64,000 nucleotides of DNA, taken from assembly GCA_046330295.1 (NCBI GenBank), contig JAXLTB010000001.1, positions 87,207 to 151,206 of the forward strand, written 5' to 3'. The translations under genes and the position numbers were made by a program. Origin of the DNA: Solirubrobacterales bacterium. GTDB lineage: Bacteria > Actinomycetota > Thermoleophilia > Solirubrobacterales > 70-9. The first letter of the stretch is position 1. Every line of letters begins with the position of its first letter. Below, piece after piece: positions 1,831 through 43,311 of the stretch. Below the pieces are notes generated by a model. The model was given only the letters and a program-made list of their open reading frames with translations, did no database searches and was not told where the DNA came from.

Positions 1831-2949
1831 GTGCCAGTCGAAGTCAGCCCAGCCCGGAGCCGACGCCAAGTTGGTGAGTTCATCGAGTTGCCGTTCCGCC
1901 TGCATGCCGGAACGCCCTGGGTGCCACCGCTGCGCCTCGAGCGGCGGATCTTCCTCAATCGCCGCCTCAACGCCTATTTCAAGCACGGCGAGGCCGAGTA
2001 CTTCCTGGCTCGGCGAGACGGCGAGATCGTCGGCCGGATCAGTGCCCAGATCGACTTCGCCTACAACCGCTTTCACGGAAGCCGCACGGGGATGTTCGGC
2101 TTCCTCGAGTTCGAGGACGACCAAGAGGTGCTCGAGGCGCTGCTTGGCGCGGCGGAGGGGTGGCTGAAGGCGCGGGGCTGCGTCGAGGCGCTGGGGCCGA
2201 TGGACTTCTCTCTCAACGACGAGAGCGGGGTGCTGATCGAGGGCTTCGAGCTCGAACCGCTGATCCGCCAGCCCTGGCACCCGCCCTACTACCAGCAGCG
2301 CTGCGAGGCGGCCGGCCTGACCAAGGCGATGGACCTCTTCTCCTGGGACCTCTCGATAGACGACCGCGAGCAGATGCTGCCGATCCTCTTCGAACTGGCG
2401 GAGAAGGCGGAATCGGAGCATCGGGTCGCGGTGCGGAAGATGTCCCGTCGCGGCCTGCGCCGGGACCTGGACAGGTTCGCAGAGGTCTACAACTCCGCCT
2501 GGTCGACCAACTGGGGCTTCGTTCCCTACTCCAAGCAGGACCTCGACGCCTACGCCCTGGACCTGCAACTCGTCTTCACGCCGGAGTGGTTCATGGTCGC
2601 CGAACGCGACGGGGAGACGATCGCGATGGCGATCACCGTGATGGACATCAACCAGGTGCTGCGCAAGATGAAGGGGCGCCTGCTGCCACTCGGCTGGTGG
2701 CACTTCCTGCGCCGCAACCGGATCTGCGACCGCCTCCGGGTCGGCTTCCTCGGGGTGAAGCCCGAGTACCAGCACACCGGCGTCGCCGCGCTCCTCTACG
2801 TCGAACATTTCAACGCGGCGGCGGCGACCCCGCTGAAGAAGGGCGAGGCGGGCTGGATCCTCGAGAGCAACGAGGCGATGAACCGTGGGCTCGAGGCGAT
2901 GAACGGGCGCCTCGTCAAGCGCTACCGGGTCTACGAGCGCGCCCTCTAG
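1831..2949 (+). CDS. GNAT-like N-acetyltransferase family protein (function unknown)
   Basis: 372-aa ORF with coding-like composition. The C-terminal part (GVKPEYQHTGVAALLY ... ESNEAMNRGLE) resembles an acyl-CoA N-acyltransferase fold. Divergent from the reductase gene. Confidence 0.7.
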   Translation: MPVEVSPARSRRQVGEFIELPFRLHAGTPWVPPLRLERRIFLNRRLNAYFKHGEAEYFLARRDGEIVGRISAQIDFAYNRFHGSRTGMFGFLEFEDDQEVLEALLGAAEGWLKARGCVEALGPMDFSLNDESGVLIEGFELEPLIRQPWHPPYYQQRCEAAGLTKAMDLFSWDLSIDDREQMLPILFELAEKAESEHRVAVRKMSRRGLRRDLDRFAEVYNSAWSTNWGFVPYSKQDLDAYALDLQLVFTPEWFMVAERDGETIAMAITVMDINQVLRKMKGRLLPLGWWHFLRRNRICDRLRVGFLGVKPEYQHTGVAALLYVEHFNAAAATPLKKGEAGWILESNEAMNRGLEAMNGRLVKRYRVYERAL

Positions 2950-2957
2950 CGGCCCGG

Positions 2958-4196
2958 CTAGGGCGCCCGCAGCGCCACCACGCAGTTCTGCCCCCCGAAC
3001 CCGAAGGCGTTGGCGATCGCCGTCTTAACGACGGCCTCCCGGGCCTCGAGGGCGACGTGATCGAGATCGCACTCGGGGTCGGGCGACTCGAGGTTTATCG
3101 TCGGGGGCAGGGCCGAATCGCGCATCGCGAGCAGGCAGACCATCGCCGAGAGCGAGCCTGCGGCGGCGATCAGGTGCCCGACCATCGACTTCGGGGAGCT
3201 GACCGGGACGCGGTCGGTATCCGCGCCGAGGACGGAGCGGATCGCCTTCGTCTCGGAGATGTCGTTGGCGCGGGTGGCGGTGCCGTGGGCGCATATGTAG
3301 TCGAGCTCGGCCGGCTCGATCCCGGCCCGTTCCATCGCCGTGGCGATCGCCAGCGCCGCGAAGCGACCGCTCGGCTCGGGAGCGCTCATGTGGAAGGCGT
3401 CCGCGGTCAGCGCACCGCCCGCGATCCGCCCGTAGGGGACGGCGCCTCGCGCTTCGGCGTGAGCCGCCGACTCGACGACCATCAGCACGGCGCCCTCGCC
3501 GAAGACGAAGCCGTCGCGGTCGGAGTCGAAGGGTCGGGAGGCTCGCCCGGGCTCGTCGTTGCGCTCCGACAGCGGCCCCATGTTGGATAACCCGGCAAAG
3601 ACCGCGGCGTTGATGCCGGCGTCTGCCCCCCCGGCGATCACGACGTCGGCCTCACCGGCGACGATCAACCGCCGGGCCTCGAGCAGAGCGTAGGTTCCCG
3701 TCGCGCAGGCCAGGGCGCTGGCGGTGACCGGACCGTGGGCGCCGAGCTCGATCGCCACCTCGCAGGCTGCCATGTTGGGGATCGTCGAGGCGACGAAGAA
3801 GGGGCTGACCTGGTTCGGGCCCTCCGCGACGAGGGCGAGGACGTTGCGTTCGGTCTCGGGTGTACCCGCCACCGCGGTGCCGACCGCGACTCCGACCCGG
3901 CCGGAGCTCGCGGCCACGTCGAGACCAGCGTCCTGCACCGCCTCGCGGGCCGCGACGATGGCCATCTGCGAGAAGCGGGCGGTGCGGTGGGCGCGCTTGG
4001 GCCCCAGCTCGGCAACCGGGTCGAAACCGCGCACTTCGCCGGCGATGCGGGTCGAGAGCGGCAGGGGGTCGAACGCCGCGATCGGGCCGATGCCCGACTC
4101 GCCGGCGAGCAGCGACCGCCACGTGGTCGGCACGTCGAGTCCGACCGGGGTGATGGCACCAATCCCCGTCACGACCGGGTCCGGAGTGCCGGTCAC
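2958..4196 (-). CDS. fabF: Beta-ketoacyl-ACP synthase II (KAS II)
   Basis: 412 aa. Cys-His-His triad contexts ACATGTYAL, CAHGTATRANDISE and KSMVGHLIAAAG, with a C-terminal NAFGFGGQN. Confidence 0.9.
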   Translation of the reverse strand: MTGTPDPVVTGIGAITPVGLDVPTTWRSLLAGESGIGPIAAFDPLPLSTRIAGEVRGFDPVAELGPKRAHRTARFSQMAIVAAREAVQDAGLDVAASSGRVGVAVGTAVAGTPETERNVLALVAEGPNQVSPFFVASTIPNMAACEVAIELGAHGPVTASALACATGTYALLEARRLIVAGEADVVIAGGADAGINAAVFAGLSNMGPLSERNDEPGRASRPFDSDRDGFVFGEGAVLMVVESAAHAEARGAVPYGRIAGGALTADAFHMSAPEPSGRFAALAIATAMERAGIEPAELDYICAHGTATRANDISETKAIRSVLGADTDRVPVSSPKSMVGHLIAAAGSLSAMVCLLAMRDSALPPTINLESPDPECDLDHVALEAREAVVKTAIANAFGFGGQNCVVALRAP

Positions 4197-4366
4197 GGAA
4201 TCCTGAACCGGCCGGCAAGACGTTGCCTCGCAGTGGGTGCGCCAAGGGCCTCGACGGGCATCGGTCGATCCTATTGGGAAGGGTCTCCACCAGCCGGCGG
4301 GGAACCCGACGATCGGGGGAAGTTCCTCCGGTCCCGGGGACCACGTTCATATACTGCGCCGCGGTC

Positions 4367-7300
4367 GTGCACCTTCACGTGGGCGAAGCGAGGACGCCTC
4401 TTGCCGGGGAGATCTCCATCCCCAGCTCCAAGTACCACGCGCACCGAGCGCTGATCCTGGCATCGCTGGCGCCCGGTACCAGCCACATCATCGGCCCCTC
4501 AGGGGCACAGCACGTGCGCTCGACGATCGATGTCCTGCGCGGTCTCGGCACCGCGATCGACGTAACCGAGGACGGCTTCACGGTGCGCGGAGGCCCTTAC
4601 CGTCCCAATCTGGAGACCGTCTCGGTGGGCTCCTCCGGCACCACCCTGTACTTCATGACAGGACTCGCCTCGCTGGCCGACACGCCGTTCACCCTGACCG
4701 GGCAGAAGTACTTCGAGCGGCGCCCCGTCGGCCCGCTGCTCGAGGCCCTGGAAGCGGTGGGCGTCCGCCTCGAGTCCGCCCGGTCCAGGCCGCCGATCAC
4801 GATCCGACCGTCCCAGCCCGCGGGAGGGCGCGTCAGCATCGCCGGCAAGCTCTCGCAGTGGATCTCGGGGCTGCTCATCCTCGCCCCCTTTGCCACCGGA
4901 CGGACCGTGGTGGAGGTCGAAGGGGAGTTCAACGAGCGCTCCTACGTCGAGCTGACAGTCGAGATGATGCGCCGGTTCGGGCTCGAGGTGGCGGTCTCCG
5001 GCGACTGGCGCCGCTTCGAGATCGAGCCCGGCCAGACGGCCGCCCCGGCAGACATCGTCCTGCCTCCCGACATCGGTTCCGCCGCTTTCGGACTCGCCGC
5101 CACCGCCCTCCACCCCGCCGACGTCCTCTTCCGCGGACTGATTGAGACGGAGGCAGGCCGGGTCGACCATCCCGAGGGCCATTTCATCGCGGTGATGTCC
5201 GAGATGGGCCTACCGATGGAGTTGGACGGCGCAGCGGGCGGTTTGCGGGTTCGGCACGACGGCATCCGGCTGCGGGGAGTCGAGGTGGACTGCCGGACGA
5301 TGCCGGACATGTTGCCGGCGCTCGCGGCGATCGGGCAGTTCGCGGAGGGGGAGACGAGATTCCGCAATATCGAGCATGTCCGCCTCAAGGAGTCCGATCG
5401 GGTCGTCTCGATGCTGCAGCTGAATCGCATGGGCGGAAACGTCGCTATCGAGGACGACCAACTGGTCGTCCGCGGTGTCGAGGACCGGCTGACCGGGGCG
5501 CCGCTCTCGTCCTTCAACGATCACCGTGTCCACATGGCGCTGACCATCGCCGCATCGCGGGCGAGCGGCGTCAGCTCGCTCACCTACCCAAACGCCTACC
5601 GGATCTCCTATCCATCCTTCCTCGACGACATGCGCTCGATCGGGATTCCCATGAGGGTCGGGGAGGCCCTGGAGAGCGACGGTGAGGACGGGCGCGCCCA
5701 CGCGGTGTCCGCGCAGCCGACCGTGGAGTCGGTGGCGATCGACCAGGCTGCGGAGACGCCGATAGTCGACTGGGTGGCCCGCTGGGTTCGCGAGCGCCCG
5801 GCCGATACCGCCGTCGTCGACGTGCGCACGAGCGGCACCCGCGCCTGGAGCTGGCGCGGGCTCGACGAGGCGGCTGATCGCACCGCCGCGCTCCTGCTGG
5901 AGCTCGGCGTGGAGCCCGGCGAGACCGTCGCCTATCAGCTGCCGAACTGGGGTGAGTTCGTGGTCTTGACGCTCGCCGCGATGAAGGTCGGCGCCGTCTG
6001 CTGCCCGCTGATGCCGATCTTCCGCGAGCGCGAGGTCGCGCAGGCGCTCGAGCGCTCGCGGGCGCGGGTGCTGGTCATCCCCGAGCGTTTCCGCGGGCGC
6101 GATCACCTCGGGGAGACGCGGGCCCTGGTCGAGTCCTGCGCGGCCGGGAGCCCCGAGTCCTCGATCCGCCTCGAACACGTCCTCGTGGTCTGTGGCGACG
6201 TCGCACCGGACCTGACCGAGTCGGGCGGGGTCCGCTGGCACGACTTCGCCGCCGCGACGACCACGAGGGCAGTCGACCGCGCAGCGATCGAGGCGCGCAA
6301 GCCGGCGCCAGAGGCGATCGCCCAGCTGCTCTTCACCTCCGGCACCTCCGGCGAGCCGAAGGGGGTGCTGCACCGCTATGACGCGCTCACCCGGGCGGCG
6401 GCCATGCAGCTCGAGCACCTCGGCCTCGGGCGCGACGACCGTATCTTCATCCCCACCCCCCTGGCTCACCAGACCGGTCTGCTCTACGGGATGTGGCTGG
6501 CCTTCATCCTCGGCTCGACGCAGATCCTCCAAGACGTATGGGACCCCGTCCGTGGAGTTCGGACGCTGCGCGAGTGGAACGGGACCTTCGCGCAGGCGGC
6601 GACGCCGTTCCTGGCCGATCTCGTCGAGGTGGTCGAGGAGGGCGAGGCCGCGCCGAGCTCGCTGCGCATCTTCGTCGTCACCGGCGCCGCCGTGCCGCGG
6701 GCGCTGGCGGAGAAGGCGACCCACGTGCTCGACGCCTCGATCTGCGGCGCCTGGGGATCGACGGAGTCCTGCCTCGGCGCCCTCACGGCCCCCGGCGACC
6801 CCCGCGAGAAGGTCTGGGGAACCGACGGCCGAGCACTGGCCGGAACCAGCATCCGCGTCACCAATGACTCCGGGAAGGTCCTCGGCCCGAATCTGGAGGG
6901 TCACTTCGAGGTCCACAGTCGCTGCCTTTTCGAGGGCTACCTCGACCGTCCGGACCTGACCGAGGCGGCGCTCACGCCCGACGGCTGGTATCGCAGCGGC
7001 GACCTCGCGACCATCGACGAGGACGGCTACCTTCGCATCACCGGGCGGGTCAAGGACATCGTCAACCGCGGCGGCGAGAAGGTGCCGGTCGCCGAGATCG
7101 AGCAGCTGCTGCACCGGCATCCGCTGGTCGCCGACGTCGCGATCGTGGCGATGCCCGATCAGCGCCTCGGCGAGCGTGCCTGTGCCTTCGTGGTCCTGCG
7201 CCAGGAGACCTCGCCCGAGGGGTTCGACCTCGTCGCGATGCGCGGCTACCTCGACCTCCACAAGGTCGCCACCCAGTACTGGCCGGAGCGATTGGAGTTG

Positions 7301-7417
7301 ATCGCCGAGCTGCCCAGGACCCCGAGTGGAAAGATCCAGAAGTTCGTTCTGCGCGAGCGGGCAAGGGAGCTCAGGCCCACTCATCCCACCTCGACCGACA
7401 AGGAGCCCGTTTCGTGA
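4367..7417 (+). CDS. Fusion protein: EPSP-synthase-fold domain + adenylate-forming acyl-CoA ligase (AnsJ/AnsK- or PlmJK-like)
   Basis: Frame is open from TTG 4223. GTG 4367 or 4379 sits just before the EPSPS N-terminal motif LAGEISIPSSKYHAHRALILASLA. EPSPS motifs: GSSGTTLYF, RLKESDR, NDHRVHMAL. Ligase motifs: LLFTSGTSGEPKGV, YRSGDL, GRVKDIVNRGGEKV, PRTPSGKIQK. The start is uncertain. Confidence 0.85.
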   Translation: MHLHVGEARTPLAGEISIPSSKYHAHRALILASLAPGTSHIIGPSGAQHVRSTIDVLRGLGTAIDVTEDGFTVRGGPYRPNLETVSVGSSGTTLYFMTGLASLADTPFTLTGQKYFERRPVGPLLEALEAVGVRLESARSRPPITIRPSQPAGGRVSIAGKLSQWISGLLILAPFATGRTVVEVEGEFNERSYVELTVEMMRRFGLEVAVSGDWRRFEIEPGQTAAPADIVLPPDIGSAAFGLAATALHPADVLFRGLIETEAGRVDHPEGHFIAVMSEMGLPMELDGAAGGLRVRHDGIRLRGVEVDCRTMPDMLPALAAIGQFAEGETRFRNIEHVRLKESDRVVSMLQLNRMGGNVAIEDDQLVVRGVEDRLTGAPLSSFNDHRVHMALTIAASRASGVSSLTYPNAYRISYPSFLDDMRSIGIPMRVGEALESDGEDGRAHAVSAQPTVESVAIDQAAETPIVDWVARWVRERPADTAVVDVRTSGTRAWSWRGLDEAADRTAALLLELGVEPGETVAYQLPNWGEFVVLTLAAMKVGAVCCPLMPIFREREVAQALERSRARVLVIPERFRGRDHLGETRALVESCAAGSPESSIRLEHVLVVCGDVAPDLTESGGVRWHDFAAATTTRAVDRAAIEARKPAPEAIAQLLFTSGTSGEPKGVLHRYDALTRAAAMQLEHLGLGRDDRIFIPTPLAHQTGLLYGMWLAFILGSTQILQDVWDPVRGVRTLREWNGTFAQAATPFLADLVEVVEEGEAAPSSLRIFVVTGAAVPRALAEKATHVLDASICGAWGSTESCLGALTAPGDPREKVWGTDGRALAGTSIRVTNDSGKVLGPNLEGHFEVHSRCLFEGYLDRPDLTEAALTPDGWYRSGDLATIDEDGYLRITGRVKDIVNRGGEKVPVAEIEQLLHRHPLVADVAIVAMPDQRLGERACAFVVLRQETSPEGFDLVAMRGYLDLHKVATQYWPERLELIAELPRTPSGKIQKFVLRERARELRPTHPTSTDKEPVS

Positions 7418-8598
7418 CCCAGGCGCCGGCATCGACCCCCGAAGCCCTCGACGAGGTCGAGTTCGCGGCCCTCAAGCAGGAGATCGCGGCCTACGTCGCC
7501 GAGCAGGGAGAGGCATGGACCGCCCGGATCGAGGAGAGCGGAACCGTTCCCGCCGAGCTGCGCGCGGAGCTTCGCGATCGCGGCTACCTCTCGCTCGCCG
7601 GCCCGCGCGAGTACGGCGGGCGCGGCATCCCCTTCGCCCGCTACCTCGAGCTGCTCGAGCTCTTCTCGATGTCCCACGCCTCCCTGCGGATGATCATTCA
7701 CGTCGCCAACGGCGTCTGGCGGGCGGTCGACCAGTACGCGACCGAGGAGCAGCGCCGGCAGTTCGTGCTCCCCGCGGTCACCGGCGAGCTGACAATTGCC
7801 TTCACCCTCACCGAGCCCACCGCGGGCACCGGCGCCGACCTGCGCTGCGCGGTCGAGCGCGAGGGCGACACCTACTACCTCTCGGGCGAGAAGCACCTGA
7901 TCACCTTCGGCGTCAGCTGCGACCGCTGGCTGCTCTTCGCCCGGCTGGCCGGTACCAGCGGCGGCGAGGGCACCGTTGCGCTGCTCGTCGACCGCGAGGT
8001 GCCGAACGTAAGCGTCCGCGAGATGGGACCGTCGCTCGGGGTGCGCGGGACCGATCACGCCCACCTCGTCTTCGACCGGGCGCCGGTCCCCGTCGCCGAC
8101 CGCCTCGGCGAGGAGGGCAACGGCCTCGCGGTGGCCTTCGGCGGCTTCCTCACCCCGAGCCGTATCGCGGTGGCGATGACCTGCGTCGGCCTCGCCCGCC
8201 GGGCGCAGGACCTTGCCGTCGCGCATGCGCTGGAGCGCGTCACCTTCGGCAAGCCGCTGGCCGCCCGGCAGGCCATCTCCTTCGCGCTGGCCGAGAACGC
8301 GGCCGACATCGAAGCCGCGCGGCAGCTGGCCCTGCACGCGGCGGAGGAATGGGAAGGTGGCTCGGCGCAGGCCGGGACGCTCTCCTCGATGGCGAAGCTG
8401 ACCGCGGTCGACATGTTGACCCGGGTCACCGACAAGGCCCTGCAGGCCCATGGCGGGATCGGGTTCTGGGCATCCCAGCCGATCGAGCGGGTGTACAGGG
8501 ATGCCCGCGCCCAGCGCTTCGAGGAGGGCACCAACGAGATCCAGAAGACGATCATCGCCCGCGACGTGCTGACGCCGCCCGCGGGACCGGCCGCATGA
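7414..8598 (+). CDS. Acyl-CoA dehydrogenase (AnsL/PlmL-like position)
   Basis: 394 aa. GTGA start/stop overlap with the upstream gene. Motifs FTLTEPTAGTGADL, GEKHLITFG, QAHGGIGF and RFEEGTNEIQK. Confidence 0.9.
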   Translation: MTQAPASTPEALDEVEFAALKQEIAAYVAEQGEAWTARIEESGTVPAELRAELRDRGYLSLAGPREYGGRGIPFARYLELLELFSMSHASLRMIIHVANGVWRAVDQYATEEQRRQFVLPAVTGELTIAFTLTEPTAGTGADLRCAVEREGDTYYLSGEKHLITFGVSCDRWLLFARLAGTSGGEGTVALLVDREVPNVSVREMGPSLGVRGTDHAHLVFDRAPVPVADRLGEEGNGLAVAFGGFLTPSRIAVAMTCVGLARRAQDLAVAHALERVTFGKPLAARQAISFALAENAADIEAARQLALHAAEEWEGGSAQAGTLSSMAKLTAVDMLTRVTDKALQAHGGIGFWASQPIERVYRDARAQRFEEGTNEIQKTIIARDVLTPPAGPAA

Positions 8599-9455
8599 GC
8601 GAAGGATTCGCCACCGACCGCGTCGCTCTGATCACCGGCAGCTCGCGCGGGATCGGGCGCTCCCTGGCTCTGTCCCTGGCCGCGCAGGGCGCCTCGATAG
8701 TCGTCAACTACAAGCGCAACCGGGAGCTCGCGGACTCGGTGGTGCGATCGGTCGAGGAGGCCGGTGGACAGAGCATCGCCGTGCAGGCCGATATGGAGAA
8801 GCCGGACGACATCGATCGGCTGTTCGAGTCCGCGGCGGAGAGGTTCGACCGGCTCGACTACTTCGTCAGCAACGCCGCGGCCAGCGCCTTCAAGTCGATC
8901 GCCGACCTGAAGCTGCACCACCTCGACCGCTCCTACGCGATGAACGTCCGCGCCTTCGTGCTCGGTGCCCAGCGCGCGGTCGAGCTGATGCCCGACGGCG
9001 GGCGGATCGTCGCGCTATCCAGCTACGGCTCGATCCGCGCCTATCCGACCTATGCGAATCTCGGCGCCGCCAAGGCCGCAGTCGAGGCCTGGGTCCGCTA
9101 CATGGCGATCGAGTTCGCGCCGCTGGGGATCAACGTCAACGCCGTCAACGGCGGGATCATCGACTCCGATTCCTCGGCCTACTTCTACGACGTCGAGGGC
9201 ATGCCCTCGCTGGAGACCGTCCTGCCGAAGGTGCCGAAGGCGCGGATGGGGACGGTCCAGGAGGTGGCCGATGTCGTCGAGTTCCTGCTCGAACCCCGCT
9301 CGGAGTACATCACCGGCCAGTCACTGGTCGTCGACGGCGGGCTCAGCATCGTCGCGCCGCCGTTCTTCGACGACGCCACCGGCCCGCTGCGGCTTCCCGC
9401 TCGAAACGGCGGCGAGGAGGCCGGTGCGGGCGCGGGCGCCGCGTCCGATGGCTGA
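8595..9455 (+). CDS. Short-chain dehydrogenase/reductase, candidate 1-cyclohexenylcarbonyl-CoA reductase (ChcA-like position)
   Basis: ATGA overlap with the ACAD stop. ALITGSSRGIGRSLA (TGxxxGIG), NAAAS, SSYGS...YxxxK (YANLGAAKAA). 286 aa. The longer track ORF from 7326 is an out-of-frame read-through artefact. Confidence 0.85.
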   Translation: MSEGFATDRVALITGSSRGIGRSLALSLAAQGASIVVNYKRNRELADSVVRSVEEAGGQSIAVQADMEKPDDIDRLFESAAERFDRLDYFVSNAAASAFKSIADLKLHHLDRSYAMNVRAFVLGAQRAVELMPDGGRIVALSSYGSIRAYPTYANLGAAKAAVEAWVRYMAIEFAPLGINVNAVNGGIIDSDSSAYFYDVEGMPSLETVLPKVPKARMGTVQEVADVVEFLLEPRSEYITGQSLVVDGGLSIVAPPFFDDATGPLRLPARNGGEEAGAGAGAASDG

Positions 9456-11553
9456 CCCGAGCGGCGAGCTCTCGGCCGCCTTCACGCCGACGGCGGTCGG
9501 ACGCCTGTGGCTCCCCCACCGGATCGTGATGGGAGCGATGCACCTCGGCATCGAGGCCGCCCCGGATGCCGGCGAGGCACTGGCGGCCTTCTACCGTGAG
9601 CGCGCGCTCGGCGGAGCCGGCCTGATAGTCACCGGCGGCTGGGCCGTCTCCCGGGTCGGTGCCGGGGGGCGCAGCTACGGCTTCGTCAACGAGGAAGCCG
9701 GGGCGCGGGCGCTCGAGCGCGTCGTGGCTGGGCTTCAGGGAACCGGTTCGGCGATCGCCCTGCAGCTCTTCCACGCCGGTCGCTACGCCTTCGAGGATGC
9801 CTTCGGGCTGGTTCCGGTGGCTCCCTCGGCGCTCGCGAGCCGGGTCTCGAGGACGATGCCCCGACCGCTCGAGGAGGATGAGATCTGGGAGACGATCGAG
9901 AGCTTCGCGCGAGCGGCTCGCCGCGCCGTCGAGCTCGGCTTCGACGCCGTCGAGGTGATGGGATCGGAGGGCTACCTGGTCGACCAGTTCCTCTCCCCGC
10001 TGACCAACAGGCGCGAAGATGCCTGGGGCGGCGATCACGAGCGCCGGATGCGCTTCGGCCTCGAGCTGGCGGCGGCGGTCCGCGATGCGGTCGGTGCCGA
10101 GTTCCCCCTCATCTTCCGGATGACCGGCGCCGATCTGATGCCGGGCTCCCGCTCGAGCGGCGAAGTGCTCGACTTCGCGCGGGCGCTCGCCGGCGCCGGC
10201 GTCGATGCGATCAACGTCGGGATCGGCTGGCACGAATCCGCGGTGCCGACGGTCCAGGGCCCGGTGCCGCCCGGCGTATGGTCGCCGTGGGCGGTGGCGC
10301 TGAAGCGGGCTGTCGGCACGGAGGTCGAGGTGATCGCGGGAAACCGCGTCAATCGCGTCACCGACGGCGCCACGCTGCTCGCCACGGGGGAGATCGACCT
10401 CGTCTCGATGTCGCGTCCCTTCCTCGCCGACCCCGAGCTGCTAGCCAGGGCGCGGGCCGAGCGCCCGGTCAACGTCTGCATCTCCTGCAACCAGGCCTGC
10501 ATCGACCGCTCTCTGACCGACGGACAGGTCTCCTGCCTGGTCAATCCGCGGTCGGGGTTCGAGCGGTCCTTCCCCCTGCCCGCGGAGACGAGTGCCGGCG
10601 GGCCCTCGGGGCGCTTCGCGGTCATCGGCGCTGGCCCCGCCGGGCTCGAGGCGGCGCGGACGCTGGCGCGCCTCGGCCAGCGGGTGGAGCTGTTCGAGGC
10701 CGAGGAGGAGCTGGGCGGGCAGTTCCGCTTCGCCCGCTTGGTTCCGGGCAAGGAGGACTTCGGGGCGACGATCTCCTACTTCGACCGGGAGCTGCGGCGG
10801 CTGGGCGTGCTCATCCACCTTGGCCGAGCCGTCCGCGAAACCGACGCGGATCTGCTCGGCGGCTTCGACGGCGTCGTCCTCGCAACCGGGGTCCTACCGC
10901 GTCGGATCGACCTGCCCGGCGCCGAGCTACCGCTGGTGAGCGACTATCCGAGCGCCTTCGACGGCGCGGTCAGCGCGGCGCGACGTGTCGCGATCATCGG
11001 CGCCGGGGGGATCGGGGTCGACCTCGCCCATTGGCTCACCCACAGGGAGACCGGGGAGCCCGCCGCGGAGCGCTTCCTCCGGGAGCAGGGCTGGTGCCGC
11101 CGGGGGCGGGGGCTGGTCGGGGATCCCGGCACCGACCTCGCCGCCGCCACCGCGCCACCGGCGGTGACGATGATGCGACGGGGCGGTCGGGCCGGAGCCG
11201 GCATCGGCCGCTCGACTCGCTGGGTTTGGCTGGCCGCCCTGCGCCGCGCCGAGGTCGCGATCCGCATCGGCCTCTCCTACCGGGCGATCACCCCTGATGG
11301 GGTGGAAATCGTGGTCGACGGAGCCGAGCCCGAGCTGGTCCCCGCAGATGCGGTCGTGGTCGCGGCCGGCCAGGAGCGCAACGACGCGCTGCGGCCAGTG
11401 CTGGAACGCGTCGGCGTGCCGCACCGGGTCGTAGGCGGCGCCGAGAGCCCGACCGAGCTGAATGCCGTGCGCGCCTTCGGGGACGGCCTGCGCGCCGCCT
11501 ACGAGCTGGCGGGCGGTCGGGCGGGCGCCGGTTGGGCTTCCGCCGCCCGCTGA
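9448..11553 (+). CDS. 2,4-dienoyl-CoA reductase-like FMN / Fe-S / FAD-NAD(P) oxidoreductase (AnsM/PlmM-like position)
   Basis: ATG 9448 overlaps the SDR stop by 8 nt. OYE-type TIM-barrel motifs (LQLFHAGRY, GFDAVEVMGSEGYL), Cys cluster CISCNQACIDR...SCLVNP, then dinucleotide folds AVIGAGPAGLEAA and VAIIGAGGIGVD. Confidence 0.9.
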   Translation: MADPSGELSAAFTPTAVGRLWLPHRIVMGAMHLGIEAAPDAGEALAAFYRERALGGAGLIVTGGWAVSRVGAGGRSYGFVNEEAGARALERVVAGLQGTGSAIALQLFHAGRYAFEDAFGLVPVAPSALASRVSRTMPRPLEEDEIWETIESFARAARRAVELGFDAVEVMGSEGYLVDQFLSPLTNRREDAWGGDHERRMRFGLELAAAVRDAVGAEFPLIFRMTGADLMPGSRSSGEVLDFARALAGAGVDAINVGIGWHESAVPTVQGPVPPGVWSPWAVALKRAVGTEVEVIAGNRVNRVTDGATLLATGEIDLVSMSRPFLADPELLARARAERPVNVCISCNQACIDRSLTDGQVSCLVNPRSGFERSFPLPAETSAGGPSGRFAVIGAGPAGLEAARTLARLGQRVELFEAEEELGGQFRFARLVPGKEDFGATISYFDRELRRLGVLIHLGRAVRETDADLLGGFDGVVLATGVLPRRIDLPGAELPLVSDYPSAFDGAVSAARRVAIIGAGGIGVDLAHWLTHRETGEPAAERFLREQGWCRRGRGLVGDPGTDLAAATAPPAVTMMRRGGRAGAGIGRSTRWVWLAALRRAEVAIRIGLSYRAITPDGVEIVVDGAEPELVPADAVVVAAGQERNDALRPVLERVGVPHRVVGGAESPTELNAVRAFGDGLRAAYELAGGRAGAGWASAAR

Positions 11554-11573
11554 GCGGCTAGTAGGTTGAGGCC

Positions 11574-12317
11574 GTGCAGAGAGGCACCGATTCCCGCCGG
11601 GTGGCGGTCATCTCCGGGGCGTCGAGCGGCATCGGCGAAGCGACGGCCCGCTCCCTGGCGGCGGCGGGGATGGACCTGGCGCTGCTCGCGCGGCGCCGGG
11701 ACAAGATCGAGCGACTGAGCCGGGAATTGAGCTCGGACAACGGCCGGGCGCTCGCGATCGAGACCGACATCACCGACTCGGCGTCGGTCGAGGCGGCGGC
11801 AGCGCGGGTCGCGGAGGATCTCGGCGGCGCCGACGTGCTGGTCAACAATGCCGGCCAGATGCTCCTCGCTCCGTTCGGCGCCGAGCGGGCCGAGGAGACA
11901 CGCCGCATGGTCGAGACGAACCTGCTCGGCGCGATGACGCTCACCTCCGCCTTCCTCGGGCAGCTGCGTCGCAACGGCGGTGACCTCGTCAATCTCTCCT
12001 CCCTCGCCGGTCGCACCGCCAGCCCTCGCATGTCGGTGTACAACGCGACGAAGTGGGGGATGAACGGGTGGTCCGAAGCGCTGCGCCAAGAGCTGGCGCC
12101 AGACATCCGCGTCATTCTCGTCGAGCCCGGCGCCGTCGACACCGAGCTCACCTCGCACATCACCGACGAGAGGTCCAAATCGTCGATAGAGCGCTGGTAC
12201 GCGAAGGCCGGGGCAATCGCCCCCTCGGAGGTCGCCGCCGTGATCGCCTTCGCGGTCGGGCTGCCCCACCACGTCTCCCTCTCGGAGATCGTGGTCCGAT
12301 CAACCAACCAGGCGTGA
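11574..12317 (+). CDS. SDR family oxidoreductase
   Basis: 247 aa. VAVISGASSGIGEATA, NNAG, SSLAG...YNATKWG. Lies 20 nt downstream of the preceding gene. Confidence 0.9.
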   Translation: MQRGTDSRRVAVISGASSGIGEATARSLAAAGMDLALLARRRDKIERLSRELSSDNGRALAIETDITDSASVEAAAARVAEDLGGADVLVNNAGQMLLAPFGAERAEETRRMVETNLLGAMTLTSAFLGQLRRNGGDLVNLSSLAGRTASPRMSVYNATKWGMNGWSEALRQELAPDIRVILVEPGAVDTELTSHITDERSKSSIERWYAKAGAIAPSEVAAVIAFAVGLPHHVSLSEIVVRSTNQA

Positions 12318-12354
12318 CGCCCGTCGAAGCGACGCTCTTCCCGCGGGTCCCATG

Positions 12355-12384
12355 GAGAAGCCCCGCGCCGGAGCGGGGCTTCTC
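12355..12384 (+). terminator. Perfect 12-bp GC-rich hairpin downstream of the SDR gene (putative operon terminator)
   Basis: GAGAAGCCCCGC-gccgga-GCGGGGCTTCTC read directly from the sequence. There is no clear T-run, so the intrinsic-terminator call is tentative. Confidence 0.5.
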
Positions 12385-12450
12385 GAAAGCGGCCTTGCGG
12401 CACCCGGCCGATGGCCGGGTGCTTCTCACACGCCGAGCAGATGACGGTAC

Positions 12451-13945
12451 GTGCACGATCATCCAAGATCGCCTGTTCACCGCGCTGCAGTAGGGGGTCT
12501 CTTGGCGCGCCTGCCCGAAAGCCTTGACGTCCTCCGCAGGCGGGAGTTCCGGCTACTGTTCAGCGGGCAGGCAGTGTCCGTGCTGGGCGACCGCATGGCC
12601 CTCCTAGCGCTCGCTTTCGCGGTGCTGGAGATCGGCGGTTCGGTCTCAGACGTCGGGCTCGTGCTGGCCGCGGGGATGTTCCCCTTGGTGACGACCGTGC
12701 TGGCGGGCGGCGTGGTCGCCGACCGGGTCTCACGCCGTGCCGTGATGGTGGTTGCAGACCTGGTGCGGGTCGCGAGCCAGGGCACGATGGCAGCTCTGCT
12801 CATAGCGGGAGTGGCGGAGGTGTGGATGCTCGCGCTGCTGGCCGGCGTGGCTGGCGCGGCCACCGGCTTCTTCAGCCCCGCGTCGACCGGTCTGCTGCCC
12901 GCGGTCGTCCTCGCGGAGCAGCTGCAGCCGGCGAACGCGCTGCGTGCGAGCGCCGCCTCGACGGGCGAGATCCTCGGCCCGGTTGTGGGCGGGGCGCTGG
13001 TCGCCGCCGCCGGGGCAGGCTGGGCGATCGCGATCGACGCCGTGACGTTCGCGGTGAGCGCCGCCTGCCTGGCGATGCTGCGGGTTCCGACGTGTCGCGG
13101 CGCAACGGAGCTCCTTCGTCGCCGACCTGCGTGAGGGCTGGGTCGCCTTTCGGGCGCGCAGGTGGGCTTGGACCTTCGTCCTCTACTTCGCGATCGGGAA
13201 CCTGCTCTGGGGCGCGTGGGGCACGCTCGGGCCCATCGTCGCCAAACGCGACCTCGGCGGCGCGGCGGCGTGGGGCACCGTTCTTGCGGCGGTGGGCGTC
13301 GGAGCACTGGCCGGCAGTCTGCTCGCGGCACGCGTCAGACCGCGCAGGCCGCTGCTGTTCGCCGCCTCACCGACGGACTCTTCGCGTTGCCGTTGGCCTT
13401 CCTGGCGGCGGCCCCACCAGTGCCGCTGATCGCCTGCGGTGCGCTGCTGGCCGGCGCGGGGATGGCGCTCGCGATCTCCGTCTGGGAGTCGACGCTCCAG
13501 CGCCACGTCCCCGGCGAGTCGCTGTCCAGGGTCAGCTCCTTATGACTGGTTCGGCTCGCTCGCCTTCTACCCCTTGGGACTCGCAGTCTGGGGTCCGGTC
13601 GCGGCGGTCATCGGGATCAGCGTCTCGCTGTGGCTGGCTTTCGGGCTCGCCGTCGCCCTGACCCTCGCGCTGCTCAGTGTCCTCGACATCCGCCATCTAC
13701 CTGCTGCCGCGCTGCCGGCTCGGCACCGCCGGCGAGTCCAGCCGAAAGTCCGACGCCGCAGCGCCGCCGGTGTCAGCCTCAGTTCAACATCGTGGCCAAG
13801 GCCCGTCGGAGGACCAGGTGGGCAACCTTCACCCCTCGAGCATCCAACGCAGGTCAGCTTCTTGAGACGGGCGCGCTCGGCCGGGGGCTTTGCCGTCCGC
13901 AGCAGCTTCTTGGCTCAATCGAGGTGTTCCCCCGCAGCCAGGTAA
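12451..13945 (+). pseudogene. MFS transporter (EntS/MFS_3-like) disrupted by at least three frameshifts
   Basis: N-terminal half in frame 1 (REFRLLFSGQAVSVLGDRMALLALAF...). Continuation SFVADLREGWVAFRARRWAWTFVLYFAIGNLLWGAWGTLGPIV is in frame 2. LTDGLFALPLAFLAAAPPVPLIACGALLAGAGMALAISVWESTLQRHVP is back in frame 1. YDWFGSLAFYPLGLAVWGPVAAVIG is in frame 2. The 3' end is uncertain. Confidence 0.6.
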
Positions 13946-14140
13946 TTCTCAAGCGGGCCTTGGAAGCAGGCTTCGAAATCTTCCGCTGCGACCTGAGTCG
14001 CTTCGGCCGTGCATTCCTGCGCGTGGGTAACGACGTTGGCGCCGGCGCTAGCCGGCGGAGTTTCGGGAACTGCCGGCCAGAGGTTCCCGAAACCGTCGAG
14101 CGCGGTTCAAGTGAGCCTCTTTGGCCGGGAGCCCGCGGGG

Positions 14141-14563
14141 TCAGATGTCAGCGGGCAGGAGTTCGAACACCCCGCCCTGCAGTGGCGCCACGGCTCGGAA
14201 ATGGCGCTCGTCAAAGCTGAAGAGGCGCCGGGTTTCGTAGCGATCCGCAAGGACCGCGATCGAGCAATCGGCGAGACCGAGGCCGAGATCGGAGTAGCGG
14301 GCGTTGAGCTCGGCGACCACCGGGTACTCGCCCGCTTCCAGACAGGCGACGTCGTAACGCCACGCGGCGAGGTCGCTGAGGAAGGCACGTCGGGCCGCAT
14401 GGCCGAAGCGGACACCAAGCAGATAGTCGACCTCGGCCGCAACCGGTGCCGGGAGGACCAACGGTCCCTCCTCCTCTTCGCGGATCCTCAGCAGCGCCTC
14501 GAGCTGCGGCTCCTTGGCGTCCGCCAGCGCGACCAGCGGCGCCGCGTCGAGGATGAGCGTCAC
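14141..14563 (-). CDS. vapC: PIN-domain ribonuclease toxin VapC
   Basis: 140 aa. Starts MTLILDAAPLVAL (conserved Asp) and has later acidic residues (AELNARYSDLGLGLADCS, FSFDERHF). 4-nt overlap with the upstream antitoxin gene. Confidence 0.85.
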   Translation of the reverse strand: MTLILDAAPLVALADAKEPQLEALLRIREEEEGPLVLPAPVAAEVDYLLGVRFGHAARRAFLSDLAAWRYDVACLEAGEYPVVAELNARYSDLGLGLADCSIAVLADRYETRRLFSFDERHFRAVAPLQGGVFELLPADI

Positions 14564-14835
14564 TCGCCGAAGCCGCGCATCAGCTCGTCCTCGGGGATCT
14601 CCGAGATCGGCCGAGAATCGGCATCGATGCGCTCGAAGTTACCGGCGAGGGCGAAGTTCCGATCCCGCTTGGGCGCAGGCCGGTAGCAGGAGATCGCCTC
14701 GCGGACGATCTCCGCCTGGGGGCGGCCCTCCGCGCGGGCGAGACGAGCGAGGCGGTTCGCCAGCTCGTCATCGAGGTAGATACTGGTCTTGCGCACGAGA
14801 AAGCAGTATAGGGCACTACGTAGGGCATTGCTCAT
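14560..14835 (-). CDS. vapB: Ribbon-helix-helix (CopG-type) antitoxin VapB
   Basis: KTSIYLDDELANRLARLARAEGRPQAEIVREAI is a typical RHH. ATG 14835 is preceded by AGGA. The track start at 14853 and GTG 14796 are alternatives. Confidence 0.8.
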   Translation of the reverse strand: MSNALRSALYCFLVRKTSIYLDDELANRLARLARAEGRPQAEIVREAISCYRPAPKRDRNFALAGNFERIDADSRPISEIPEDELMRGFGE

Positions 14836-14865
14836 TGGTCCTGAGACAGGCACCGAGTGTCGGCA

Positions 14866-15245
14866 CTCGGGATGCTCACGCCAACCGAATACGAGGATCT
14901 ACACAACCTGCGTTGGCGCGACGTCAAACCTCGGCGGCCAGACACTGCGGGTCGCCTCCTCGAAGACCGACACCGGCATCCGCGACGTCGGCCTCTCCCC
15001 GACGCTGCGAGAGGCCCTCTCTGGGTACCGCACACGGACCCGCCGCGGCGGGGCTTACGACCTCGTCTTCCCGACCGCAGAGGGCAAGCGCGACAACCCG
15101 TCGAACGTCCGAAACCGGTTCCCAGCGAGCGCGGTCGAGCGGGCGAACGTCGCACTGCGCGAAGCCGGGGCCGAGCCGATCGTCGGCGTCACGCCCCACT
15201 CGCTGCGCCGCACTTCCATCAGCCTGCTGCTCGCGACCGGGGGCG
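14866..15245 (+). pseudogene. Tyrosine recombinase (phage-integrase family) remnant, truncated at both ends and frameshifted
   Basis: LHNLRWRDV is in frame 1. NLGGQTLRVASSKTDTGIRDVGLSPTLREAL...GVTPHSLRRTSISLLLATGG is in frame 2, with the shift at the AAA run near 14922. There is no N-terminal domain and no C-terminal Tyr box. Confidence 0.6.
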
Positions 15246-15350
15246 GCGGCACCGCCACCGTGCTGGTGGCTTCACCCGTGGCGGCGCCGGTCGGGCGATT
15301 TTCGTTGATGTTGCGCCGGCCGGCGGGCCAAGCTAGGGTCGCTGGGGCGC

Positions 15351-16055
15351 ATGAGCGTAATGCTTCTGCTCCTCAGGGTTATCCTCGGGGCGGTTTTTGC
15401 GATCGCCGGCGTCGCCAAGCTCCGGGACGGGGCCGGGACGCGGCGGACGGTCCAGGAGTTTGGGGTGCCCGAGAAGCTCGCTCCGATGGTCGGGTTCTGT
15501 CTACCGCTCGCCGAGCTCGCGGCCGCGACCACACTCGTTTTCAACCCGACCGCTGGTGTAGGGGCCATCGCATCCTTCTGCCTGCTCGCTCTCTTCGCCG
15601 CCGTGATTGCCGCAAGCATCTCCCGGGGACAGCGGCCCGACTGCAACTGCTTCGGCCAGCTTCACTCGGCGCCGGTCGGTTGGCGGACAGCCGCCCGCAA
15701 CCTCGTGCTCGCGGCCCTGGCGGTCCTCATCCTCGCGGGCAACGGGCACGCCCTCGTCGGGGCGACCGCCGCCGGCGCGCTCGCTCTGGCCGCCGTCGGG
15801 ATCCTGCTGCTGGATCGGCGGCAAGCGGAGGACGGACACGAAGGCGCTGGAGCTGTGGCAAGAGCCCGCTCGCGATCGGCTCGCGTGCACCGCCATTTGA
15901 GCTGCGATCGCGCGACGGTCTCAACGTCAGCCTCACATCGCTGGTTCGCCGCGGCCGCCCGGTCCTCTTGGTCTTCAGCGATCCCCATTGCGGGCCGTGC
16001 ATGGCGCTGGCGCCCGAGCTCGCCCGCTGGCAGCGACGCCATTCCGACGAGCTGA
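15351..16055 (+). CDS. MauE/DoxX-family redox-associated membrane protein (ORF as it stands; the last ~65 codons look like out-of-frame read-through)
   Basis: Five hydrophobic segments and the family CxCFG motif (RPDCNCFGQLH). After about 15830 the frame turns Arg/Ser-rich, while a thioredoxin domain appears in another frame. Confidence 0.65.
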   Translation: MSVMLLLLRVILGAVFAIAGVAKLRDGAGTRRTVQEFGVPEKLAPMVGFCLPLAELAAATTLVFNPTAGVGAIASFCLLALFAAVIAASISRGQRPDCNCFGQLHSAPVGWRTAARNLVLAALAVLILAGNGHALVGATAAGALALAAVGILLLDRRQAEDGHEGAGAVARARSRSARVHRHLSCDRATVSTSASHRWFAAAARSSWSSAIPIAGRAWRWRPSSPAGSDAIPTS

Positions 16056-16255
16056 CCATCGCAGTCGTCGAGCGCGCGTCCAATGAAATCGGCGAGGGGG
16101 CGGACGCCCACGGCCGCCGCGACTTGCTGGTACAGCGCGACAGCGACGTCGCCGATGTCTACGTGGCTCGTGGGACTCCGAGCGCGGTCCTCGTCGATAC
16201 TCACGGCAGGGTTGCGAGCGCTCCGGTTGGCGGCCGTGTCGGGATCGAAGCGCTC
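15866..16255 (+). other. Thioredoxin-fold (TlpA/ResA/MauD-like) domain with no start codon of its own, in frame 2
   Basis: PLAIGSRAPPFELRSRDGLNVSLTSLVRRGRPVLLVFSDPHCGPCMALAPELARW...GTPSAVLVDTHGRV. CGPC active site. No ATG/GTG/TTG in this frame for more than 100 nt upstream, so at least one frameshift is implied relative to the MauE frame. Confidence 0.6.
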
Positions 16256-17188
16256 GTGGCCGAGCACGTCGCCGGCTTCGAATCGTCTGAGCGCGCCTCG
16301 GAATCAACTCCGCCGACGCACTTGCGCCGGCGGGAGATCCTCACCCGCTTCGGCGTCGCCTCGGGGGCCCTGGCGGCCCTCGGATTCCCCGCCTGGGCAA
16401 CCGCCCAGGCGGGGCCGCTCAAGATCAGGCGCTGCCACCATGATCGGGATTGCCCCGGGTCGCTTCAGTGCATCGACGGAGATTGCAAGTGCCCGGCCCT
16501 CTACCTAGACCAGTGCGGCAACGACTGCGTCGACCTCAACGGCGACCCGGCGAACTGCCGCGAGTGCGACCACGCGTGCGGTGCGGGAGAGAGTTGCGTC
16601 GGAGGCAAGTGCACGGAGGGCGATGCCACCACCTGCAACCCACCGTGTCCCGTCGGGCAGGCGTGCTGTCTCGAGTCCGGCAGCCCGAAGTGCGTCGACC
16701 TCAGCGTGGGTGCCGGCGAGCACTGCGGTGAGTGTGGCCACGACTGCACGCCGACGGAGGTCTGCTGCGACGGTCGCTGCAAGAACCTGTTCCAGAATCC
16801 AAACCGCTGCACGAGTAAGGAGGAGGGCTGCTTCGGCGTCAACAAGAAGAAGTGCAAGAGAGGTCAGGTCTGCTTCAACGGGCGCTGCCGCGACACGTGT
16901 CCGGACCGCTACACGCGGTGCGGCGACTTCTGCCTCGATTCAACAAGGAAGGAGCAGTGCTGCGACGCCAGGGTCTACGGCCAGTGGGATCTGCACAACT
17001 GCGGCGCGTGCGGCCACGACTGCAAGAAGCTCTCGGGTTTCATCCGGGCCGCTTGCTGCCCTGGAGTCGGCTGCGTCGACCTCGCGGTCAATCCCGGCAA
17101 CTGCGGCGGCTGCGGGAACCCGTGTCCCTCAAACTGCCAGTGCGTTCCCGGCCCGGGTGGCAAGGGTGTCTGCACGAACTGTGTCTAG
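16256..17188 (+). CDS. Secreted cysteine-rich repeat protein with a twin-arginine-type signal peptide (46 Cys)
   Basis: HLRRREILTRFGVASGALAALGFPAWATAQA, then about 258 aa with 46 Cys by my count. Repeated C-V-D-L-x(3-5)-NCGxCGxxC modules. Candidate starts are GTG 16256 and TTG 16322. There is no stop separating it from the thioredoxin domain upstream. Confidence 0.7.
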   Translation: MAEHVAGFESSERASESTPPTHLRRREILTRFGVASGALAALGFPAWATAQAGPLKIRRCHHDRDCPGSLQCIDGDCKCPALYLDQCGNDCVDLNGDPANCRECDHACGAGESCVGGKCTEGDATTCNPPCPVGQACCLESGSPKCVDLSVGAGEHCGECGHDCTPTEVCCDGRCKNLFQNPNRCTSKEEGCFGVNKKKCKRGQVCFNGRCRDTCPDRYTRCGDFCLDSTRKEQCCDARVYGQWDLHNCGACGHDCKKLSGFIRAACCPGVGCVDLAVNPGNCGGCGNPCPSNCQCVPGPGGKGVCTNCV

Positions 17189-17198
17189 GCGATCGGGC

Positions 17199-17552: not shown

Positions 17553-17943
17553 GACGACGGGCTCGGCTCGAGGCTGCTCGAGTCTTCTTTCCGGACGCCG
17601 TCGAGCACAGTCCGGGCCTCTGATCGAACTCATGGGCATAGCGGCGGCGCCGCCCGCGACGCGGTCCGGTGAACTCGAATCGCCCCGTCGGATTCCAGCC
17701 ACTTCCGGCGAAGAGTGGCCGTCTCGGCGACCTATCCCCGTATATCGCCGCGCATCGGGATTCAGAGGCCAAACACGCAATCGCACGTATCCAGCGGTGG
17801 CTTGCAGACAATCGCGGAGCGTTCCGACAGATGCAACGACCCCGCGGTTGCTACCCCCGACTGCTACTCCCGCCCGAATCGGCCCCTACGATGATTGACG
17901 ACAACCAGCAGAAAGCGGCTGACTTGCAGTCGATTCGCGAAAA

Positions 17944-18017: not shown

Positions 18018-18150
18018 ACGGGGCGGGATTCTAGCTTCCGCAGCCTGTGCTGGCGGGGAAGCCTCGCGCGTTGGCGGAATACTGGCGCCCTCCCCGCCCC
18101 AATCAGCACCCATGCGAGGACCGGCGGCGGCGGCGGGAGCAACCGCGCGC

Positions 18151-43275: not shown

Positions 43276-43311
43276 ATCCCCCCAGTCGGAGGGTACCCCC
43301 GCGGCCCGGGA

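Follow-up and report, generated by a model that had tools for sequence, protein, structure and literature searches.

The locus described here raises two linked questions: whether a set of four coupled genes forms a complete route from shikimate to cyclohexanecarboxyl-CoA (CHC-CoA), and into which product this acyl-CoA would be channelled. The genes lie on a 64,000-nt stretch of high-GC (~70%) DNA, called the window below, from the metagenome-assembled genome (MAG) of a Solirubrobacterales bacterium (GCA_046330295.1, contig JAXLTB010000001.1). Judged from its sequence, the operon at 4367–11553 is very probably a bona fide shikimate-to-CHC-CoA pathway of the AnsJK/L/ChcA/M type. The most likely sink of its product would be type II fatty-acid synthesis, yielding membrane omega-cyclohexyl fatty acids. 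This destination is proposed with moderate confidence, because the operon is situated in the core chromosome, shares a divergent promoter region with the gene of a FabF-type β-ketoacyl-acyl carrier protein (ACP) synthase (KAS), and is not accompanied by a secondary-metabolite cluster.

Genes at the locus were delimited using a codon-usage gene call and a list of open reading frames (ORFs). The first gene (4367–7417, +), assigned by Pfam, NCBIfam and homologue alignment, encodes a J-K fusion of 1016 aa, in which an N-terminal J domain with the fold of 5-enolpyruvylshikimate-3-phosphate (EPSP) synthase (about aa 1–445) is followed by the CoA ligase domain K. Pfam matches were EPSP_synthase (9e-81), AMP-binding (1e-65) and AMP-binding_C, the latter two covering aa 519–1037 of the maximal gene 1 ORF. 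The second gene (7414–8598, +; Pfam, NCBIfam and cluster copies) encodes a 394-aa AnsL/AsuB2-like flavoprotein of the acyl-CoA dehydrogenase (ACAD) family, with all four ACAD domains present and the catalytic Glu kept in the alignment, in an EEGT motif instead of the classical YEGT. The third product (8595–9455, +) is a ChcA/AsuB3-like enoyl reductase of 286 aa from the short-chain dehydrogenase/reductase (SDR) family (adh_short_C2, 4e-59), whose best family and structure matches were FabL enoyl reductases (NF005975; B. subtilis 3oic, 1e-53) and not ketoreductases. The fourth (9448–11553, +) is an AnsM/AsuB4-like FMN/4Fe-4S/FAD 2,4-dienoyl-CoA reductase of 701 aa (Oxidored_FMN, 3e-61, and Pyr_redox_2), which aligned over its full length with E. 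coli FadH (1ps9, 1.6e-144) and retained the Fe-S motif CxxCxxxC...C with its four Cys. Consecutive genes overlap by GTGA at 7414–7417, preceded by AAGGAG, by ATGA at 8595–8598, and by the 8-nt sequence ATGGCTGA at 9448–9455. The ORF list and the junction sequences thus bear out the four coupled plus-strand genes and three overlaps of the original prediction, and Pfam, NCBIfam and PDB matches upheld its identification of the products as a fusion, an ACAD, a 286-aa SDR and a dienoyl-CoA-reductase-like enzyme. Domain E-values and coupled junctions of this kind are far beyond chance.

One coordinate had to be corrected: gene 1 had been started at 4223, where a TTG merely opens the longest possible ORF. 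The true start is, on sequence grounds, GTG 4367 (MHLHVGE...), because the NCBI MAG protein P0001, to which the fusion is 100% identical, comprises the same 1016 aa, the MHL N-terminus aligns with that of a Streptomyces homologue, and a conserved TATACT box is found 11 nt upstream; these observations argue against TTG 4223. The KAS is likewise 100% identical to an NCBI MAG protein (P0233).

The cassette comparison was anchored on copies recognised by their genomic context and not on the named S. collinus or phoslactomycin proteins. One of these is locus L138, whose fusion protein has an identical counterpart in Streptomyces rishiriensis. It contains genes for an aminoDAHP synthase, an aminoDHQ dehydratase, an aminotransferase of the 3-amino-5-hydroxybenzoic acid (AHBA) synthase type, an oxidoreductase/phosphatase pair, a stand-alone A-PCP-TE protein and a GNAT protein, then JK-ACAD-SDR-FadH in the same order as in the window. 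By this content L138 is an ansatrienin/mycotrienin-type cluster with the layout described for myc, in which MycA1–A4 build the CHC moiety from shikimate (PMC13304725). Identities between the window and L138 were 62% (J), 57% (K), 64% (ACAD), 67% (SDR) and 53% (FadH-like). In the second anchor, L033 from Kitasatospora mediocidica, a type II 3-dehydroquinate synthase, an AMP ligase, an arylamine N-acyltransferase, two KAS III and an ACP are encoded directly ahead of JK-ACAD-SDR. This architecture is of the asukamycin type, in whose cluster asuB1–B4 were assigned to cyclohexylcarbonyl-CoA formation (PMC12720273), and the window proteins were 60–65% (J and K), 70% (ACAD) and 68% (SDR) identical to it. 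For the K domain, identity to the cassette copies ranged from 57 to 62%. A full-length match was also obtained with the fusion P0190 (59% over 1010 residues) from S. flaveolus, where the myc cluster had been defined. The colinear JK-L-ChcA-M order with overlapping stop and start codons recurs, as an order, in L138 and in ~40 related loci. The proposal that the genes correspond in set and order to ansJ-ansK-ansL-chcA-ansM is therefore supported by colinearity and by 53–67% identity to the L138 copies; each sequence-level defining feature of a CHC-CoA cassette that was tested (J, K, L, ChcA-type SDR, M and their order) is present.

The chemistry predicted for the operon follows by orthology from the characterised Streptomyces cassettes, with shikimate converted to shikimoyl-CoA and then to CHC-CoA. 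The K domain of the fusion, a predicted shikimoyl-CoA synthetase, would activate shikimate to shikimoyl-CoA; the ACAD-family flavoprotein would contribute dehydration or α-proton chemistry; and the FabL-like SDR together with the FadH-like Fe-S flavoenzyme would carry out the enoyl and dienoyl reductions leading to CHC-CoA. The J domain is a diverged EPSP-synthase fold in which the catalytic and PEP-side residues are retained.

For gene 1, a reading as housekeeping AroA fused to an unrelated acyl-CoA ligase had to be weighed. It draws on the aroA equivalog model TIGR01356 of NCBIfam, which scores the J domain at 310.5 against a cut-off of 287.25, on public annotation, which names such fusions 3-phosphoshikimate 1-carboxyvinyltransferase, and on the lack of any other aroA in the 64-kb window or in ~1.5 Mb of related loci. 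Over a full-length alignment, however, the J domain was 26% identical to E. coli AroA (PDB 1g6s), versus 59–73% to the J domains of cassettes from Streptomyces, Kitasatospora, Arthrobacter, Microlunatus, Herbiconiux and other Solirubrobacterales. We compared 22 positions which, from general knowledge of the E. coli structure, we take to bind shikimate 3-phosphate (S3P) or phosphoenolpyruvate (PEP). Fourteen of them are kept, including K22, R124, D313, E341, R344 and R386, a retention that would also suit a housekeeping enzyme, especially at K22, D313 and E341; the other eight are replaced (S23Y, N94S, R100Y, P101F, loss of S169, S197E, N336H, K411I). The same eight changes were found in each cassette copy checked, including one unfused J protein, and the core of this signature persists down to ~41–45% identity among the library representatives. 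Several of the replaced residues presumably contact the 3-phosphate of S3P in the EPSP synthase structure, so that the replacements fit a substrate without that phosphate. The same fusion also occurs inside antibiotic clusters of streptomycetes, organisms expected to have an aroA of their own. Taken with the J-specific substitutions, the identities place the EPSPS-like domain with the cassette J domains and not with housekeeping AroA, the outcome by which the original prediction was to be judged, and leave the AroA reading barely credible. Relative to AroA (1g6s), the J domain thus shares the fold family, 14 of 22 ligand or catalytic positions and a passing TIGR01356 score, and differs in its fusion to a CoA ligase and in its invariable occurrence within a cassette.

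The TIGR01356 score above the cut-off explains the public AroA annotation, and the model does not discriminate between AroA and J. All J-K fusions among P0001–P0232 that carry a source name are called either AroA (3-phosphoshikimate 1-carboxyvinyltransferase; NCBI, JGI) or cyclohexanecarboxylate-CoA ligase (JGI). This naming is a systematic misannotation and can distort shikimate-pathway reconstructions from MAGs.

The second of these names touches on a different reading of the whole operon, as a catabolic or reverse pathway for CoA-dependent use of shikimate, quinate, cyclohexanecarboxylate or alicyclic (naphthenic) acids, acting together with the flanking monooxygenase and dehydrogenases. 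The best NCBIfam match of the ligase domain was indeed cyclohexanecarboxylate-CoA ligase (TIGR03208, 478 bits), and the ACAD matched two cyclohexane-1-carbonyl-CoA dehydrogenase models (NF043006, 183 bits; TIGR03207, 141 bits), but all of these matches fall well short of the curated cut-offs (792, 650 and 575, respectively). The locus is flanked by part of a flavin monooxygenase gene, by a saccharopine-dehydrogenase-like gene and by an SDR gene, but the monooxygenase and the saccharopine-dehydrogenase-like gene have no counterpart in any of 52 related genome loci, a first sample chosen through the fusion protein. In the locus with the closest fusion homologue (74%), from a Conexibacter sp. MAG (L001, 6252–9882, without KAS), the cassette is immediately preceded, in the same orientation, by a molybdenum hydroxylase operon with genes for three subunits (2Fe-2S, FAD and MoCo), a neighbourhood that would suit degradation. 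Against this, the window genes scanned included neither an enoyl-CoA hydratase gene nor a ring-opening one of the crotonase family (BadK/BadI type), all four proteins are much closer (53–70%) to the biosynthetic cassettes of antibiotic clusters, and the J domain is known only from biosynthetic cassettes. A catabolic role is accordingly considered highly improbable, and membership in the cyclohexanecarboxylate degradation pathway (AliA/AliB/BadK/BadH/BadI) was rejected on the sub-cut-off scores and the lack of a crotonase-family gene among those scanned.

With a biosynthetic CHC-CoA operon as the preferred reading, the partner gene on the opposite strand becomes the main clue to the sink. At 2958–4196 (−), a FabF-type KAS II of 412 aa is encoded, assigned from NF005589 and from an alignment with 1e5m. 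It passes the KAS II subfamily model NF005589 (476 versus a cut-off of 387), matches FabF 1e5m at 5e-110 and keeps the Cys-His-His triad and the GFGG motif. The KAS gene divergently adjoins the cassette in about 40 of the 52 genome loci. Because these loci had been selected through the fusion, a second sample was drawn from metagenome contigs through the KAS alone, with close orthologues defined by at least 76% identity and at least 1 kb of upstream DNA. All 12 close orthologues had the cassette divergently adjacent. Among KAS orthologues of 68–73.5% identity, including that of the cultured Baekduia soli, none had the cassette; the gene order in this group is F420-dependent LLM oxidoreductase, fatty-acid-CoA-ligase-like gene, KAS, and in B. 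soli itself (CP042430.1, L055) the KAS gene lies between the fatty-acid-CoA-ligase-like gene and a cyclopropane-fatty-acid synthase gene. At 58–67% identity, a range that includes Streptosporangiaceae and Acidimicrobiales MAGs, several loci again pair the KAS (then the ligase) divergently with JK-ACAD-SDR, and in some of these an F420-dependent LLM oxidoreductase takes the place of the FadH-type reductase after the SDR. One lineage, L056, has separate J and K genes, an F420-dependent LLM replacing the FadH-type reductase, and the KAS beyond a major facilitator superfamily (MFS) gene.

In a neighbour-joining tree, the window-type KAS proteins formed one clade, sister to B. soli, and cassette-linked KAS genes fell in three separate parts of the tree; the link of the cassette to this KAS family is therefore recurrent. 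Pairwise distances of KAS and J were strongly correlated (r = 0.94, Mantel p about 0.001), and mean within-clade distances were 0.148 for KAS, 0.153 for J and 0.095 for ACAD. Because the KAS and J distances correlate and the cassette is no less conserved than the KAS, the cassette is taken to be an old, vertically inherited and selectively maintained operon, and not a recently acquired cluster fragment.

Two further gene families were noticed around these loci. A gene for a long-chain-fatty-acid-CoA-ligase-like protein of 555–600 aa travels with this KAS family (L055, L071–L107, L029, L139). In B. soli the end of this gene overlaps the start codon of the KAS gene, and a 64% identical copy lies 1.5 kb upstream of the cassette of Herbiconiux solani; its substrates could be free cyclohexanecarboxylate or other starter acids. 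In L029, L032 and L056/L057/L085, an F420-dependent luciferase-like (LLM) oxidoreductase gene follows the SDR gene and no FadH-type Fe-S dienoyl-CoA reductase gene is found there. The same variant is possibly present in L116–L118, where a FadH-type gene was not detected. The LLM may stand in for the last reductase without being homologous to it.

Between the two divergent genes lies a shared control region (4197–4366), delimited from the sequence and from alignments of 35–42 related intergenic regions, its function being putative. A −10-like TATACT at 4350–4355, 11 nt ahead of the GTG start, is conserved in ~40 related loci, and this spacing implies a near-leaderless mRNA. A small inverted repeat, CCCGAcgaTCGGG, at 4305–4317 is also conserved in the related intergenic alignments, and in relatives a GATTATCGCGGTTCG box adjoins the KAS start. 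Such conserved boxes may be operator sites for co-regulation. A promoter/terminator consensus scan of 2800–14000 gave nothing above shuffled sequences.

On these grounds, CHC-CoA would serve as a starter unit, with the neighbouring KAS initiating on, or elongating, the bulky cyclohexyl acyl chain, and omega-cyclohexyl fatty acids in membrane lipids would be the products. The locus offers a CHC-CoA supply without a competing polyketide synthase (PKS), in that the cassette is complete and no PKS or non-ribosomal peptide synthetase (NRPS) was found in the window, out to 50 kb, or in about 45 related loci, out to 10 kb. The original prediction had noted this absence for the window, and it holds for each larger gene checked there; neither fabH nor fabD was present in the window either. 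Linkage to fatty-acid synthase components is provided by the divergent FabF-type KAS, with fabH and an ACP gene not at the locus. The fatty-acid sink is preferred because of the conserved KAS pairing, the lipid context in B. soli, the spill-over seen in an asukamycin producer and an orphan cassette in Herbiconiux. For the asukamycin producer, CHC-CoA is described as also being a precursor of omega-cyclohexyl fatty acids, which make up 3.1% of the cellular total and rise fivefold in a thioesterase mutant (PMC4147253, citing Rui et al. 2010). In the cultured H. solani, the J-K-ACAD-SDR-FadH cassette is an orphan in that no PKS was found up to 10 kb away. Its proteins are 45–64% identical to those of the window and show the same J signature; it differs from the window in having separate J and K genes and no adjacent KAS. 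In the description of the genus Herbiconiux, cyclohexyl-C17:0 'may be present' (PMC10011130). Like the window, Arthrobacter sp. Sa2CUA1 (L053) has an orphan cassette with no PKS nearby. There, JK-ACAD-FadH without the SDR is located between the S10 ribosomal-protein operon and the tuf/fusA/rpsG/rpsL operon. This cassette adjoins a 1639-aa ORF without a Pfam match.

Several observations weigh against a fatty-acid sink. The cyclohexyl-C17:0 statement is made at genus level and not for H. solani itself. All organisms with the KAS-cassette arrangement are MAGs, and the sink is a prediction from their sequences. For the cultured Conexibacter woesei, the only fatty acids reported were oleic acid, iso-C16:0, C16:0 and C17:1 (PMC3035278), and no cultured Solirubrobacterales genome, that of C. 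woesei included, is among the cassette-bearing loci. No fabH, fabD or ACP gene is next to the cassette, and a search of the window and the related loci for fabH and further ACP genes found only an acpP (46453–46698), 42 kb away. Nor are KAS and cassette inseparable: B. soli and about 25 metagenome loci have a KAS of this family but no cassette, and in seven Solirubrobacterales loci the cassette is present and the KAS is not. The KAS may thus simply be the general FabF of the lineage, and its adjacency partly historical. That CHC-CoA primes fatty-acid or unknown-lipid synthesis, as first proposed, hence remains plausible and, through the conserved FabF linkage, is better supported than before; the step from linkage to product is still ours.

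Omega-cyclohexyl fatty acids are mainly known from the thermoacidophilic Alicyclobacillus and a few actinobacteria. Among the latter, they were reported in Curtobacterium pusillum and Propionibacterium cyclohexanicum (PMC5023266, PMC10011130). The view that such lipids would be unusual for high-GC actinobacteria therefore needs qualification in that a few actinobacteria already have them; it stands for the lineage, as Solirubrobacterales would be new.

A stronger form of the lipid reading was also considered. Because the KAS travels with the fatty-acid-CoA-ligase-like gene and the F420-dependent oxidoreductase in relatives, it might be a starter-selecting enzyme that primes fatty-acid synthesis from acyl-CoAs including CHC-CoA, and not a general elongator, and omega-cyclohexyl fatty acids might make up much of the membrane in this widespread, uncultured soil clade. 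This version is considered rather unlikely. If true, it would make these lipids a biomarker specific to the lineage and add a new case of initiation by a KAS I/II-type enzyme.

The chief alternative, regarded as conceivable but doubtful, is that CHC-CoA, or a partly reduced cyclohexene- or hydroxycyclohexane-carboxyl-CoA, has another destination: it might enter a polyketide or non-ribosomal pathway encoded elsewhere, or acylate a small molecule or a lipid head group at N or O. The adjacency of FabF would then be inherited synteny only. One candidate transferase would be a double-GNAT/FemAB-like protein of 372 aa (1831–2949, +; weak Pfam matches to Acetyltransf_1, _6 and _7), whose gene had been missed in the earlier annotation; it lies between the saccharopine-dehydrogenase-like gene and the KAS gene and is convergent with the latter. 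It is a fixed neighbour, found near KAS-bearing cassettes in 24 loci, and the ansatrienin-type L138 has a GNAT gene beside its cassette in a pathway where CHC is N-acylated (PMC13304725); the window GNAT, however, had no detectable similarity to that of L138. Across 20 species the double-GNAT protein is 74–80% identical, with 88% mean column identity in a 21-sequence alignment, and it thereby exceeds the cassette in conservation, but in many loci variable insertions separate it from the KAS gene. Conservation and insertions together make it look like an unrelated housekeeping neighbour. It had no PDB or NCBIfam match, and a single-sequence structure model reached a pLDDT (predicted local distance difference test) of 32. 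The independent occurrence of the KAS family without cassette and of the cassette without KAS would suit another sink, as would the optional SDR that follows the cassette in some loci; the absence of PKS and NRPS genes from the surroundings searched speaks against it, and CHC-CoA is reported to enter actinomycete fatty-acid synthesis by default (PMC4147253). Membrane omega-cyclohexyl fatty acids hence remain the preferred product.

The other neighbours contribute little to the system. Domain searches confirmed the KAS II gene at 2958–4196 (−), the saccharopine-dehydrogenase-like gene (578–1762, −) and a second classical SDR gene (238 aa, 11601–12317, +) as neighbours. The latter starts 45 nt downstream of the reductase gene and is an optional fifth gene, which only about 5 related loci share in this position. 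Of the Baeyer-Villiger monooxygenase named earlier, a flavin monooxygenase is indeed seen, but only as its first 180 aa (3–542, −), cut by the window edge. Neither this gene nor the saccharopine-dehydrogenase-like one is a conserved functional context: both were absent from all 52 related loci and were rejected as parts of the system.

Downstream, a gene for an MFS_3-type transporter (12502–~13950, +) is broken by frameshifts: frame 1 stops at the TGA at 13132–13134 and the protein goes on (...SFVADLREGWVAFRARRWAWTFVLYF...) in another frame from about 13112. The gene is either a pseudogene or a MAG assembly error; truncation by an inserted island was considered and dropped in view of the frameshifts. 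No counterpart of this gene was found in any of the 52 related genome loci, and the MFS protein of L054 is not homologous to it. The adjoining region 13100–19000 has a lower GC content (about 0.67) and a weak coding signal. It contains an RHH/PIN toxin-antitoxin pair (14141–14796, −), a Cys-rich Stig1-like/thioredoxin-like ORF (14789–17188) and a tRNA-Gly(GCC) (17944–18017, −), the sole Rfam match in the window, and may be an island or a variable region beside the operon.

The remaining window is core chromosome, with genes for a sigma factor, a tyrosine recombinase, an L,D-transpeptidase and a GGDEF/EAL protein, ilvD, thiD, dprA, rplS, trmD, ffh, ftsY, smc, rnc, acpP, plsX and recG, genes for a FakA-like protein and an MMPL transporter, and a riboflavin operon; the GC content of the cassette is the same as that of its flanks. 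At 40521–47740 (−) the order is plsX-acpP-rnc-smc-ftsY-ffh, with no fabD, fabG or fabF beside acpP, so that the fab genes seem dispersed in the genome. A 108-aa WS/DGAT fragment (42934–43260) lies between ftsY and smc.

The cassette family and its enzymology are already known. What is new here is the lineage (Solirubrobacterales, class Thermoleophilia, mostly soil MAGs), the lack of a secondary-metabolite cluster, the core-chromosome location and the conserved FabF partner; in the literature searched, no paper connects Solirubrobacterales with a CHC-CoA cassette or with cyclohexyl lipids. A rare membrane lipid class is thereby predicted in an abundant uncultured soil lineage, which is directly testable. 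The 'antibiotic' CHC-CoA cassette would also have a place in primary metabolism, as an operon that is passed on vertically and coupled to a FabF gene, which bears on the origin of the Streptomyces cassettes. For pathway engineering, the operon may offer a compact four-gene CHC-CoA source from a new lineage.

Among known systems, the asukamycin type (asuB1–B4 of Streptomyces nodosus subsp. asukaensis) is close in its logic: CHC-CoA starts an acyl chain that is built by discrete (non-modular) condensing enzymes, and some of it escapes into fatty acids (PMC4147253, PMC12720273). For fusion, ACAD and SDR, the window is 60–70% identical to the K. mediocidica look-alike L033, which has two KAS III homologues, an ACP of its own and an arylamine N-acyltransferase; the sole condensing enzyme at the window locus is instead a canonical Cys-His-His KAS II, and ACP, KAS III and AHBA genes are not part of it. 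We take the phoslactomycin plmJK-plmL-chcA-plmM genes, with J and K fused, to be a cassette of the same type. With the ansatrienin/mycotrienin cassettes (ansJ-ansK-ansL-chcA-ansM of S. collinus; mycA1–A4 of S. flaveolus), the window copy has in common the four protein families, their order, the JK fusion, the coupling and the J signature. Unlike them, it is located outside a PKS/NRPS cluster, in the core chromosome of a Solirubrobacterales bacterium, where it is divergently paired with a FabF-type KAS gene and appears to have been inherited vertically across the clade.

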